Positions 49,801 to 53,556 of a DNA stretch of 64,000 nucleotides are shown piece after piece. Source of the DNA: Chloroflexota bacterium (GTDB lineage Bacteria > Chloroflexota > Dehalococcoidia > JAUQQI01). Position numbers and translations under genes: made by a program. Location: positions 36,064-100,063 of the forward strand of contig PSKS01000004.1 of assembly GCA_040289115.1 (NCBI GenBank), read 5' to 3'. Under the pieces are notes generated by a model. That model worked only from the letters and a program-made list of their open reading frames with translations, was not told the DNA's origin and made no database searches. Position 1 is the stretch's first letter, and each line of letters opens with the position of its first letter.

Positions 49801-52404
49801 ATGGATCTGAGCCGCTACACGGAGAAAGCCCAGCAGGCCCTCTTTGGGGCCCAGAATGAGGCCGAAAAGCGCCAACATCAGCAGGTTGAGCCCGAGCACC
49901 TGCTCCTGGCGTTGCTCGACCAGACGGATGGGGTTGTACCCCGGATCGTCGAGCGACTGGGCATCAACCTAGCCCAACTGCGGGATTCGGTGGATAGCGC
50001 CTTGCGGGCGTTCCCCCGCCTGCAGATGCCGCCCACCCAGGTTTACGTCTCGCCCCGGCTGAAGCGGGTGCTAGACCTGGCCCAGGAGGAGGCCGGCCGC
50101 CTGCGGGATGACTATGTCAGCACCGAGCACCTCTTTATTGCCGTGGCCGACCCGACGGTGGGCGGCCCGGTGCTGCGGATCTTCCAGGGGTTCGGCATTA
50201 CCCGGGACCGCATTTACCAGGTGCTCACTCAGGTTCGGGGCGCCCAGCGGGTGACCTCACCCCACCCGGAAAGCACCTATGAGGCCCTCCAGCGCTACGG
50301 CCGCGACCTTACCGAGCTTGCCCGTCAGGGCAAGCTGGACCCGGTCATCGGCCGGGATGAGGAGATTCGGCGGGTAATCCAAGTGCTTTTGCGCCGGACC
50401 AAGAACAACCCGGTGCTCATCGGCGAGCCGGGTGTGGGCAAGACCGCCATCGTCGAGGGCCTGGCGCAGCGGATCGTCCGCAACGACGTTCCCGAGGGCC
50501 TCAAAAACAAGCGGATTGTCCAGTTGGATATGGGTGCCCTCATCGCCGGCGCCCGCTACCGGGGCGAATTCGAGGAGCGCCTTAAGGCCGTCATCCGGGA
50601 GATCCAAGAGTCCCAGGGTGAGATTATCCTCTTTATCGACGAGCTCCACACCGTGGTGGGGGCCGGCGCGGCCGAGGGGGCCATCGACGCCAGCAACATG
50701 CTCAAGCCGATGCTGGCCCGGGGTGAGCTGCGCACTATCGGCGCCACCACCATCGACGAATACCGAAAGCACATCGAGAAAGACCCGGCCCTGGAGCGCC
50801 GGTTCCAGCCCATCCTGGTAGAGGAACCCACCGTTGAGGAAACCATCAGCATTTTGCGGGGCCTTAAGGAGCGCTACGAGGTCCACCACGGGGTGCGCAT
50901 CAAGGACTCGGCCCTGATTGCCGCCGCCCAGCTGTCCCACCGCTACATCACTGGACGCTTCCTGCCCGATAAGGCCATCGACCTGGTGGACGAGGCGGCG
51001 GCTAAACTCCGGATGGAAATGGATTCGATGCCGGCCGAGCTGGACGAGCTCCAGCGCCGGATCATCCAGCTGGAGGTCGAGCGGGAGGGCCTCAAGCGGG
51101 AGACCGACCCGGCCTCTCGGGAACGGCTGACCAAAATCGAGCAGGAGCTGAGCAACCTTAAGGAAGAGTACAACCGGCTCAAGATTGAGTGGGAACGGGA
51201 GCGGGACCTCATCCAGCAGGTGCGCCAGATCAAGGCGGAGGCCGAGGCTACTCGTCACCAGCTGGAGCAGGCTCAGCTTGCCGGCGACTGGAACCGGGCG
51301 GCCCAGCTCCAGTACGGTGTGCTGGCCGACCTGGAGCGCCGGCTGCGGGAGGCCGAGCGGCAGCTGGCGGCCCTTGGGTCGCGGCGGCTCGTTAAAGAGG
51401 AGGTTGACGAGGAGGATATCGCCGAGGTCGTCAGCCGCTGGACGGGTATCCCGGTGAGTCGTCTGCTGGAGAGCGAGCGGGAGAAGCTCCTCCATATGGA
51501 GGAACGGCTCCGCCAGCGGGTGGTAGGTCAGGACCACGCCCTCAGCGCTGTGGCCAATGCCATCCGCCGGGCCAGGGCCGGCATTCAGGACCCCCGCCGG
51601 CCGCTGGGCAGCTTTTTGTTCCTCGGCCCAACCGGGGTGGGCAAGACCGAGACGGCCCGGGCCCTGGCTGAGTTCTTGTTCGATGACGAGCAGGCAATGA
51701 TTCGGCTGGATATGTCCGAGTACATGGAAAAGCACACCGTGGCCCGCCTTATTGGGGCCCCGCCCGGCTACGTCGGCTACGAGGAGGGCGGTCAGCTCAC
51801 GGAGGCGGTGCGCCGGCGGCCCTACGCGGTCATCCTCTTTGACGAGGTCGAAAAGGCCCACCCCGATGTGCTCAACGTCTTACTGCAGATTCTGGACGAC
51901 GGCCGGCTCACCGACGGCCACGGCCGCACCGTCAACTTCCGGAACACCGTCATCATTATGACCAGCAACCTGGGCAGCCACTGGTTCAACGAACCGGGCC
52001 TCAGCCTTGAAGACGTCCGGCAGCTGGTGCTCAATACTGTCCGGGCCCATTTTCGGCCGGAGTTTCTTAACCGGATCGACGAGGTCATCGTCTTCAGGCC
52101 TCTGGACCGGGAAGACCTGCGCCAGATTGTGGACATCCAGATGCGCCAGGTTCGGGAGCGGCTTGCCGAGCAGAAGATCAGCCTGGAGGTTACGGATGCG
52201 GCCCGGGACCTGCTGGCCGAGCTCGGCTTCGACCCCAACTTCGGGGCTCGGCCCCTCAAGCGGGTTATCCAGCGGACGGTTCTGGACCCGCTGGCGATGC
52301 GAGTCCTGGCCGGGGATTTCCAGCCCGGCGACACGGTTATCGTGGATGCCGAGGCCGGCTCGGTGGTCCTGCGCAAGGCGCCGGTGGCGGCGCCGCTGAC
52401 ATAA
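49801..52404 (+). CDS. clpB: ATP-dependent chaperone/disaggregase ClpB
   Basis: Clp N-domain repeats, NBD1 ([15 protein letters not shown]), long coiled-coil M-domain, NBD2 ([15 protein letters not shown]) and sensor 2. Confidence 0.9.
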
Positions 52405-52434
52405 GCAAAGCCAGAAACCAGCCGGAGGAGACCG

Positions 52435-53556
52435 ATGGAGTTACAGCGGGACCAGGTTCACCGGATCGCCGCCTTCAGGCCCAGGCAGGGAAATGTGCTC
52501 AGCTTGGTCCTGGACATCTCGCCGCAAGAGAGCCAGAATCGGACGTACCACGTGGTCCGCAAAAGCCTCTTTGACGAGCTGCGGCGCAAGGTTCCCGAAG
52601 AAGGGCGGCGGCTTCTCGAGGCCGAGGTCGAAAAAATCGATGATTACTTCGAGCGCCACTTCACCCCCCATGGCCTCGGGATTGCCGTTTACTCGTGCAT
52701 CCCCGAGGACTTCTGGGAAGTCGTTTTCCTTCACACCCGGCCCCGGGACCAGGCCCACTACGACACGATTCCATACATTCGGCCCCTGGTGGACCTGCTC
52801 GACGAGTACGACCGGTACGCGGTGCTTCTGCTGGATAAGGCCCGGGCCAGACTCTTTTTCATCGAACTGGCAAAAATCGTCGAGGCCGACGAGTTCGCCG
52901 ACCTTATCGTCAAAAAGCATAAGCAGGGGGGCTGGTCCTCGGCCGATTTCCAGCGCCACCACGAGACCCACGTCGTCTGGCACGTTAAGCGCACCCTCGA
53001 AGAGCTTCGGGACTTCGAGGCCCGTCACCCCTTCGACCGGCTGGTGGTGGCCGGCCCGACGGAAGTCCTGAGCACCTTCGTGGACCTTTTGCCCAAAGAG
53101 CTTGAATCGAAGCTTGCGGGCACCTTCACCGCCCAGATCATTGCCCCGCCCGAGGAGATCCTTTACAAGACGCTGGAGCTGGAGCAGGCCCTCGAAAGGG
53201 ACGAGGAACTCAGTCTGGTAGAGCAGACCCTGGAACTGGCCGCCAAAGGCGGGCCGGCTGTGGTGGGCCTAGCTGACACGGTCGGGGCGGCCATGCAGAA
53301 CCGGATAATGCGCCTGCTCATAACCGAGACCTTCCGACCCGAAGGGTACGAGTGTGCCAACTGCGGCTTCATCGGCACCCGGCCCAACGGGAGCGCCTGT
53401 CCCTTGTGCGGCGGCCCCCTGGTGCACGTAAACGACCTCATTGAAAGCCTCATCCGGGCGATGCTCCGGCAGCAGGCTTGGGTGGAACTGGTTCGGGGCA
53501 AGGGGGGCGAAAGGCTCGACGCCGTGGGCGGAATCGCCGCCCTGCTGAGGTTCTGA
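52435..53556 (+). CDS. Bacterial eRF1/Pelota-like protein (baeRF1-type) with GGQ-to-GGW substitution and C-terminal Cys4 zinc ribbon
   Basis: Central segment LIVKKHKQGGWSSADFQRHHETHVVWHVKR parallels the eRF1 GGQ loop ([29 protein letters not shown], from memory). Flanking segments parallel eRF1 domain 2/3. CANCGF...CPLCGG zinc ribbon near the C-terminus. 30-nt gap after clpB with a GGAGGAG RBS. Confidence 0.6.
   Translation: MELQRDQVHRIAAFRPRQGNVLSLVLDISPQESQNRTYHVVRKSLFDELRRKVPEEGRRLLEAEVEKIDDYFERHFTPHGLGIAVYSCIPEDFWEVVFLHTRPRDQAHYDTIPYIRPLVDLLDEYDRYAVLLLDKARARLFFIELAKIVEADEFADLIVKKHKQGGWSSADFQRHHETHVVWHVKRTLEELRDFEARHPFDRLVVAGPTEVLSTFVDLLPKELESKLAGTFTAQIIAPPEEILYKTLELEQALERDEELSLVEQTLELAAKGGPAVVGLADTVGAAMQNRIMRLLITETFRPEGYECANCGFIGTRPNGSACPLCGGPLVHVNDLIESLIRAMLRQQAWVELVRGKGGERLDAVGGIAALLRF

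Follow-up and report, generated by a model that had tools for sequence, protein, structure and literature searches.

A Balon-type gene of baeRF-1 family 10 follows clpB in a Chloroflexota genome and has homologs beside chaperone and protease genes

Balon is a hibernation factor that binds translating as well as vacant ribosomes, keeps the peptidyl-transferase centre (PTC) inert and prevents release of the nascent chain (PMC10901736). Balon, Msmeg1130 and Rv2629 all lack the NIKS and GGQ motifs, and the distinctive parts of Balon are a lasso loop, a bL27 trap, an HP motif and a beta-hairpin through which it contacts EF-Tu(GDP); genes of this type lie in stress operons with Hsp20, DnaK, DnaJ, RaiA and sigma factors, and Msmeg1130 has been reported to be hypoxia-induced (PMC10901736, 2024). 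The baeRF-1 families were defined by Burroughs and Aravind (2019), who also published a linkage between baeRF-1 and HPF, placed the two-beta-strand insert of many of these families at the zinc-ribbon insertion site, and noted that family 10 retains a conserved Gln and is possibly catalytically active. Here, we describe a family 10 gene (baeRF10) located directly downstream of the disaggregase gene clpB in a 64,000-nt stretch (hereafter, the window) of a Chloroflexota bacterium of the Dehalococcoidia (assembly GCA_040289115.1, contig PSKS01000004.1, positions 36,064 to 100,063, forward strand), together with the gene neighbourhoods of its homologs. The 373-aa product, encoded in a metagenome-assembled genome (MAG), is labelled "hypothetical protein" in public databases.

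The upstream gene encodes an ordinary ClpB: the protein scores 1388.3 bits against the NCBIfam equivalog TIGR03346 (cut-off 1232.1), has the domain order of ClpB in Pfam (Clp_N / AAA / AAA_lid_9 / AAA_2 / ClpB_D2-small), shows two Walker A motifs and the pore-loop motifs in its translation, and has no additional domain in either database. The initial annotation had named this gene clpB and had placed the second gene on the same strand behind a 30-nt junction with its own ribosome-binding site; the identity, the layout and the coordinates are all correct. The clpB stop codon (TAA, 52402-52404) is followed by a spacer in which a GGAGGAG Shine–Dalgarno sequence (52424-52430) lies 4 nt upstream of the baeRF10 ATG at 52435. 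Within the spacer (52405-52434), a consensus scan found no terminator-like site on the plus strand, and there is no significant hairpin (fold z-score -1.4). In relatives with 84–92% protein identity the spacer sequence drifts, and only its length and the CCGGAGGAG Shine–Dalgarno box are invariant. The short spacer between genes on the same strand, the conserved Shine–Dalgarno sequence and the lack of a terminator argue for a bicistronic unit with a conserved junction, and we infer from these sequence features that clpB and baeRF10 are co-transcribed. Downstream of baeRF10, a weak terminator-like hairpin is a possible but uncertain end of the operon, its region (53561-53585) folding no better than shuffled sequence (z=+0.9), and the next gene on the plus strand, for a MR/MLE enzyme (53624-54712), could share the transcript. 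An Rfam scan of 49000-54200 (E<=1) found no RNA element, such as a thermometer.

The 373-aa protein belongs to PF18854 (baeRF_family10), which it matches over residues 113-250, in the central RNase-H-fold domain, with 127.6 bits (E=5.9e-37; cut-off 27.1). Weaker Pfam matches are to eRF1_2, eRF1_3 and acVLRF1, and the earlier label "eRF1/Pelota-like" was thus right at the level of the superfamily. When a profile made from the window protein and six homologs was searched against all PDB sequences, the Balon Msmeg1130 ranked first with a full-length match (E=3.9e-23), followed by aRF1 (5e-21), eRF1 (~1e-13), Pelota (3e-13) and Rv2629 (3e-11); the Msmeg1130 sequence, rebuilt from the PDB alignment, itself matches PF18854 with 124.7 bits. 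A very confident AlphaFold2 model that draws on 47 sequences of the family (pLDDT 94.1, pTM 0.87) has three domains, and its best structural match in a Foldseek search of the PDB is ribosome-bound Msmeg1130 (8v9l_z, TM-score 0.84), with lower scores for Rv2629 (0.72), Psychrobacter urativorans Balon (0.71), aRF1/eRF1 (~0.5) and Pelota/Dom34 (<=0.45). Pfam, the model, the Foldseek matches and a four-cysteine (C4) zinc ribbon agree on the three-domain architecture of baeRF-1 proteins, with an N-terminal domain, a central domain and a Pelota-like C-terminal domain that carries an insert; the N-domain is complete, and aligns to both Msmeg1130 and aRF1. In Pfam family and global fold, the window protein thus matches an experimentally validated A-site hibernation factor.

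Msmeg1130 (PDB 8v9j/8v9l) resembles the window protein in its three aeRF1-like domains, in lacking NIKS and the catalytic Gln, and in the stress context of its gene, yet the two proteins are only ~26% identical over the N-domain. Balon of P. urativorans (AOC03_06830; PDB 8rd8/8rdv/8rdw) is of the same baeRF-1 clade and overall fold, but its sequence similarity to the window protein is marginal. The classical release factors aRF1 and eRF1 share with the window protein the three-domain architecture, the flanks of the central loop (VPxK...S...F.R) and the zinc ribbon in the C-domain, the last being a feature of classical aeRF-1 (Burroughs and Aravind, 2019). Other candidate identities were rejected. 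Assignment as a class-I release factor of the aRF1/eRF1 type fails on the TIGR03676 score (59.6 vs. 234.7), the absence of NIKS, the presence of GGW for GGQ and the modest structural match. Bacteria terminate translation with RF1 and RF2. Pelota/Dom34 was rejected on the TIGR00111 score (17.2 vs. 177.65) and on the low Foldseek score, and the VLRF-1 clade (acVLRF-1) because its 30.5-bit match is overlapped by the far stronger family 10 match and the N-domain of the window protein is complete. A reading as an anti-phage conflict system was dropped as well: no PADLOC model matches baeRF10, and ClpB has only generic AAA+ matches. A full hidden Markov model (HMM) search found 8322 family representatives at 50% identity with E<1e-3, and 1687 with E<1e-30.

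The neighbourhoods of the family link it to proteostasis genes well beyond the window. Thirty-one genome loci and the 80 best-matching metagenome loci were fetched, and all 118 loci of the data set were sorted into 74 lineage groups by target identity (80%); all neighbours within three genes on either side were clustered without prior labels, and their identities were then confirmed by Pfam. Genes were called heuristically (a filter on GC content at third codon positions and a scan for upstream frames), and many of the contigs are short. ClpB is the commonest neighbour family (10 of the 74 lineage groups), and about 21 of the 74 have at least one ClpB, DnaJ, Hsp20 or Lon neighbour (Table 1). 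Within 3.5 kb of family members, homologs of these four families have a density of 10.3 per 100 kb, against 1.2 per 100 kb further out in the same loci, a ~9-fold enrichment (Poisson P ~3e-22, uncorrected for phylogeny) in which the "far" matches still lie only 3–6 kb away. The linkage to proteostasis genes is real, and the adjacency is not a matter of chance. The initial annotation had asked whether such genes recur beside clpB or other AAA+ unfoldase genes, and they do, beside clpB and beside lon.

These neighbours occur in at least four arrangements. The order ClpB→baeRF is found only in the clade of the window, whose close relatives (84–92% identity) keep the entire synteny of CoA-transferase, clpB, baeRF and MR/MLE enzyme; because these relatives are so close, their synteny is uninformative. 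The most widespread arrangement, DnaJ→baeRF→ClpB-like, occurs in nine groups that include Anaerolineae MAGs, and it places the family 10 gene between genes related to the ClpB–DnaK/DnaJ bi-chaperone system, of which the window ClpB is a member by its equivalog score. In this clade the trio alone is common to the loci, every outer flanking gene falling into a different cluster, while the baeRF proteins have diverged to 34–40% identity and ClpB to ~62%; retention of the trio despite divergent flanks argues for selection on the trio and not for leftover synteny. The third arrangement involves Lon: Dictyoglomota have the order Hsp20→Lon→baeRF, a Binatia MAG has Lon→baeRF, and L005 has baeRF→Lon. 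The fourth, seen in the Chloroflexota clade nearest to the window protein, has one or two hsp20 genes after baeRF. In a rough neighbour-joining tree, which carries no support values, the window clade and the Hsp20-linked clade group together, and the DnaJ→baeRF→ClpB clade and the Lon-linked Dictyoglomota stand elsewhere; given this distance in the tree, the ClpB linkage of baeRF10 probably arose more than once.

The Clp partner in the DnaJ→baeRF→ClpB loci differs from the window ClpB. At 829–836 aa it is missing ~60 residues of the M-domain coiled coil, and it falls below the ClpB equivalog cut-off (1087 vs. 1232). A ClpC label for the Anaerolineae partner was rejected, since NCBIfam still ranks ClpB first, though below cut-off. 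Possibly this partner is a separate Hsp100 subtype that serves this operon alone.

Other sampled lineages show further recurrent neighbourhoods. About 11 high-GC lineage groups (L078, L085, L093, L097, L107, L111 and others) share the order SRPBCC, ArsA-type ATPase, an unannotated open reading frame of 82–114 aa, baeRF10, ROK kinase and LLM oxidoreductase; the ArsA-type ATPase there has a C-terminal HSP20-like domain (PF02374+PF17886) and is another chaperone-flavoured partner, of ArsA/Get3-like type. In nine lineage groups (L074, L080, L081, L082, L084, L086, L104 and others), baeRF10 follows genes for an M23 peptidase, a DUF72 protein and a radical-SAM protein, the last being separated from baeRF10 by 15–20 nt or overlapping it.

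The window protein departs from the solved Balons at both of its functional tips. In the AlphaFold2 model, the tip loop of the middle domain is a coil between a strand (147-155) and a helix (170-197), and it is the homolog of the GGQ loop of aRF1/eRF1: the HMM alignment to aRF1 (4af1) runs residue for residue (vpkkhkqGGwssadfqR vs. VPGKQRKGGQSAQRFAR), whereas the loop of Msmeg1130 at the corresponding place is unrelated. The loop of the window protein reads KKHKQGGWSSADFQRH, and the earlier description of the factor as "GGQ-deficient" was accurate in that no Gln follows the glycines but incomplete in that the GG pair is kept, with Trp next to it and a Gln before it. Conservation was counted by column in a MAFFT alignment of 154 family members. 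The loop positions G165 (79%), G166 (89%) and R174 (94%) are well conserved and Q164 less so (51%); position 167, after the GG pair, is Trp in 58% of members, with F, R, S, L or Y in the remainder and essentially never Gln. The loop segment of members with GG[WFY] is mostly 29 or 32 residues long. There is no NIKS motif in the 373-aa translation, as in Balon-type proteins. In the C-terminal domain, the insert is filled by an intact C4 zinc ribbon and not by the beta-hairpin of Balon; the cysteines are 96–100% conserved in the 154 members, Msmeg1130 has no cysteines at the aligned positions, and the region gives weak matches to DUF7129 and to a rubrerythrin-like zinc domain. An aRF1-like (Q)GGW loop and a zinc ribbon appear to take the place of the lasso loop, bL27 trap and beta-hairpin of Balon. 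Judged by sequence, the window protein appears to represent a more archaeal-like, less remodelled branch of family 10. Because the GG loop and the zinc ribbon are retained, chemistry at the PTC and interplay with EF-Tu could differ from those of Balon.

Upstream of clpB, an 88-nt region with 91% identity across relatives resembles a repressor-controlled promoter. It contains a perfect inverted repeat that is probably an operator for a repressor; the repeat is conserved in L001/L008, L009, L003 and L039, and is confined to the Dehalococcoidia clade of the window. The extended -10-like element TGgTATAGT at 49756-49764 is not listed by a consensus promoter scan, which needs both hexamers. Two known heat-shock operators were sought: CIRCE is absent from the window and from all loci (<=4 mismatches), and HAIR-like matches (<=3 mismatches) are scattered and lie inside genes. 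Elsewhere in the family, a palindrome (CTTTAGCACCTTTTACTAAAG, L065:2074-2094) lies directly before dnaJ of a DnaJ→baeRF→ClpB operon and is loosely like the TTAGC...GCTAA repeat of the window, with different spacing; L031 and L067 have near-consensus TTGACA-N17-TATAAT promoters before dnaJ instead.

Table 1. Features of the clpB–baeRF10 locus (positions in the window), features of homologous loci (positions in the locus named) and neighbour clusters of baeRF10 (gene positions relative to baeRF10).
Feature	Position	Strand	Size or count	Basis or remark
Perfect 7-5-7 inverted repeat TCTTAGC-GGGTT-GCTAAGA	49730..49748	+		Single copy in the window; sited where a -35 element is expected
Extended -10-like TGgTATAGT, candidate clpB promoter	49756..49764	+		Read from the sequence; invariant in four relatives
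clpB, Hsp100 disaggregase	49801..52404	+	867 aa	TIGR03346 and Pfam architecture
clpB–baeRF10 spacer	52405..52434	+	30 nt	Shine–Dalgarno sequence, no terminator
baeRF-1 family 10 (Balon-type) gene, three aeRF1-like domains	52435..53556	+	373 aa	PF18854, PDB profile, AlphaFold2, Foldseek
Tip loop of the middle domain, V159-H175 (VKKHKQGGWSSADFQRH), homologous to the GGQ loop of aRF1/eRF1	52909..52959	+		HMM alignment, conservation, AlphaFold2
Four-cysteine zinc ribbon (C307, C310, C322, C325), insert in C-terminal eRF1_3/Pelota-like domain	53353..53409	+		
Weak terminator-like hairpin, then T/A-rich tract, after the baeRF10 stop	53561..53585	+		Consensus scan
Sigma-like gene of L012	633-1424			Translationally coupled to baeRF10
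baeRF10 of L012	1424-2572			Translationally coupled to the sigma-like gene
Short Clp partner of L021	2070-4559			Short Clp partners also in L065, L067, L069, L071, L075
Short Clp partner of L026	1768-4266			
ClpB neighbour cluster	Always -1, +1 or +2		25 members, 10 lineage groups	
DnaJ neighbour cluster	-1 or -2		15 members, 7 lineage groups	
Hsp20 neighbour cluster	-3 to +2		13 members, 6 groups	+1/+2 in the Chloroflexota clade, -2 before Lon in Dictyoglomota
Lon neighbour cluster	-1, or +1 in L005		9 members, 6 lineage groups	

The explanation that we favour, with moderate confidence, is a stress operon in which a disaggregase would be co-expressed with a Balon-type factor that silences ribosomes from the A site. 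Such an operon would be of the heat-shock type, directed at proteotoxic stress, and would join two complementary functions. By homology with Msmeg1130 and Balon, the family 10 protein would enter the ribosomal A site without codon recognition, since it lacks a NIKS motif; the (Q)GGW loop would be placed at the PTC without canonical GGQ chemistry, and the C-domain that bears the zinc ribbon would engage EF-Tu. Ribosomes would in this way be parked and protected, and the supply of new aggregation-prone chains would be cut, while ClpB with DnaK and DnaJ would clear the aggregates already present. The coupling would be regulatory, through one promoter/operator upstream of clpB and one transcript on which each gene has its own ribosome-binding site, and there would be no physical machine made of ClpB and the factor. 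A-site binding and inhibition of translation by the window protein are predicted from its membership of the family and its structural likeness to ribosome-bound Msmeg1130; induction by stress and a non-hydrolytic role of the GGW loop are likewise presumed, heat-shock control being proposed because of the gene content. That the partner varies between lineages (ClpB, Lon, Hsp20, DnaJ or sigma factor) fits a shared stress regulon better than a machine dedicated to ClpB, and it extends the published placing of Balon genes in stress operons.

Several observations weigh against this explanation. The window protein appears to lack, at both functional tips, the features that set the solved Balons apart: it retains the aRF1-like GG loop, with the two glycines and R174 among the best-conserved residues of the family, and it has a C4 zinc ribbon where Balon has the beta-hairpin. 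It also falls far short of all three NCBIfam equivalog cut-offs for Balon-type ribosome hibernation factors, scoring 75.5 against 480 for MSMEG_1130_fam, 37.5 against 320 for Rv2629_fam and 19.2 against 330 for AOC03_06830_fam, and Burroughs and Aravind (2019) named family 10 as potentially catalytically active. The candidate operator belongs to neither the CIRCE nor the HAIR type. The metagenome scan was seeded with an 18-sequence QGGW subset, so that loci were sampled by way of this motif and the sample is biased toward it; the lineage groups are not phylogenetically independent, and ~70% of them have no proteostasis neighbour. The homologs in L012, L019 and L021 are likewise below the NCBIfam cut-offs.

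The main rival, a refined form of the proposal in the initial annotation, is a role in ribosome rescue or quality control, in which the family 10 protein would recognise ribosomes stalled by heat or damage, the GG loop would hydrolyse or expose peptidyl-tRNA, and the AAA+ neighbour would take over the chain, which ClpB with DnaJ/DnaK would refold or Lon would degrade, as a functional analogue of Vms1–Cdc48 or Dom34–Hbs1. In bacterial release factors, hydrolysis depends more on the glycines and the backbone of GGQ than on the side chain of its Gln. A catalytic role would be in keeping with the alignment of the loop to that of aRF1 (VPxKHKQGGWSxxxFQR vs. VPGKQRKGGQSAQRFAR), with the conservation of GG and R174 (79–94%), with the prevailing segment lengths (29 or 32 residues) among GG[WFY] members and with the flag of Burroughs and Aravind (2019), and the family recurs beside two AAA+ unfoldases and a J-protein, lying between dnaJ and clpB in a deep clade. 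The catalytic position nevertheless lacks Gln, the Gln before GG is conserved in only about half of the members, and in the closest solved relatives the PTC stays inert and the nascent chain is retained, which is the opposite of an extraction step. Nor is the partner fixed: in the clade nearest the window protein, the AAA+ protein gives way to Hsp20 or a sigma factor. Pelota/Dom34–Hbs1 and Vms1 (ANKZF1)–Cdc48 are comparable in that their factors are of the aeRF1 superfamily and act in the A site without reading stop codons, and in that Vms1 partners an AAA+ ATPase, the parallel on which the initial annotation drew; for the window protein, by contrast, no VIM-like or other AAA+-binding module was found, a search of the family representatives found no fusions to AAA+, Clp_N or J-domains, the window ClpB has no extra domain, and the tie to ClpB is one of gene order only. 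We consider a rescue function fairly unlikely on this evidence. The proposal in the initial annotation that ClpB threads or extracts the nascent chain or the stalled factor is weakened by the same points, namely the inert PTC of the Balon kin, the changing partner and the lack of fusions. A bolder version, in which the GGW/zinc-ribbon subgroup would go beyond passive hibernation and form the ribosome-side part of a heat-shock ribosome quality control, entering heat-stalled ribosomes and releasing or handing over the chain by means of the aRF1-like loop in direct work with ClpB/DnaJ or Lon as a prokaryotic counterpart of Vms1–Cdc48 or Dom34 and, in some lineages, reporting translation status to an ECF-like sigma factor, seems to us distinctly unlikely.

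A connection to transcription is hinted at in the clade closest to the window protein (38–42% identity), where a Sigma70_r4_2 gene of extracytoplasmic function (ECF)-like type ends at or over the start of baeRF10, and the order of sigma-like gene, baeRF10 and one or two hsp20 genes recurs (L012, L014/L044, L015, L040, L047, L042). The gene slot after an ECF-type sigma gene is normally that of an anti-sigma factor. Family 10 might accordingly be a sensor of translation status that is wired into stress transcription in the manner of an anti-sigma factor, and that would in the window lineage have moved behind clpB as an output or feedback element of the circuit. Besides the sigma genes that are coupled to baeRF10 ahead of hsp20 in L012, L014, L015, L040 and L047, five family representatives (P0008, P0014, P0046, P0081 and P0107) would fit such wiring, since an N-terminal zf-HC2 (PF13490) anti-sigma zinc finger is fused to their complete baeRF10 core, as would the alternative sigma factors among the neighbours of Balon (PMC10901736). 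The window protein itself has no zf-HC2 domain, however, and no sigma gene lies near its locus; in the fusions the zinc finger is joined on to the baeRF core, implying that the core is not itself the sigma-binding part, and there is no experimental precedent. A signalling role is accordingly quite improbable in our estimate. That a Balon-type gene came to lie after clpB by accident in one Dehalococcoidia lineage, with no functional tie, is highly improbable: although only the window clade, a single lineage group in which the whole synteny is common, has the genes in exactly the order ClpB→baeRF, and most sampled lineages have other neighbours, ClpB is the top neighbour of the family, a second and deeply conserved arrangement also joins the two genes, proteostasis genes are enriched ~9-fold relative to the outer flanks, and the junction combines a 30-nt spacer with a conserved Shine–Dalgarno sequence and no terminator.

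Upstream of the locus, the minus strand (43056-46353) carries a gene for a 469-aa HslU-like AAA+ protein (44492-45901; AAA + AAA_2), a YjbQ-family gene (45952-46353), rpsB (43577-44374) and a gene for EF-Ts (43056-43577) that is unusually short, at 173 aa.

No ribosome A-site factor is known to us from classical clpB operons, nor did the literature searched name one there. The family itself (2019), the hibernation role of some of its members (2024) and the location of such genes in chaperone and stress operons are already known. The suggestion that the linkage had not been described was therefore too broad, as the stress operons with Hsp20, DnaK and DnaJ have been in print since 2024 and the baeRF-1/HPF linkage since 2019; it holds for ClpB and Lon, which are not named as neighbours of Balon-type genes in the running text of the Balon paper or of Burroughs and Aravind (2019), the figures lying outside this search. 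A full-text literature search likewise returned nothing on Balon together with ClpB, disaggregase, Lon or Hsp100. In the texts searched, we have not found described either ClpB and Lon as recurrent partners or a subgroup with a (Q)GGW loop and a C4 zinc ribbon in such operons.

The way in which bacteria match an arrest of translation to protein repair under heat or proteotoxic stress is poorly defined, and hibernation factors and chaperones are usually studied apart. In Chloroflexota, Dictyoglomota and other lineages, family 10 genes recur in clpB, lon, dnaJ and hsp20 operons, and this recurrence suggests that the proteostasis regulon has a built-in arm for silencing ribosomes or for rescuing them. 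The present analysis gives a concrete annotation for proteins that have been deposited as "hypothetical protein". With a release-factor loop that is nearly intact and the zinc ribbon of archaeal factors, the (Q)GGW/zinc-ribbon subgroup would stand naturally between release factors and hibernation factors, and would offer a direct test case for whether peptidyl-tRNA is hydrolysed or protected by such factors.

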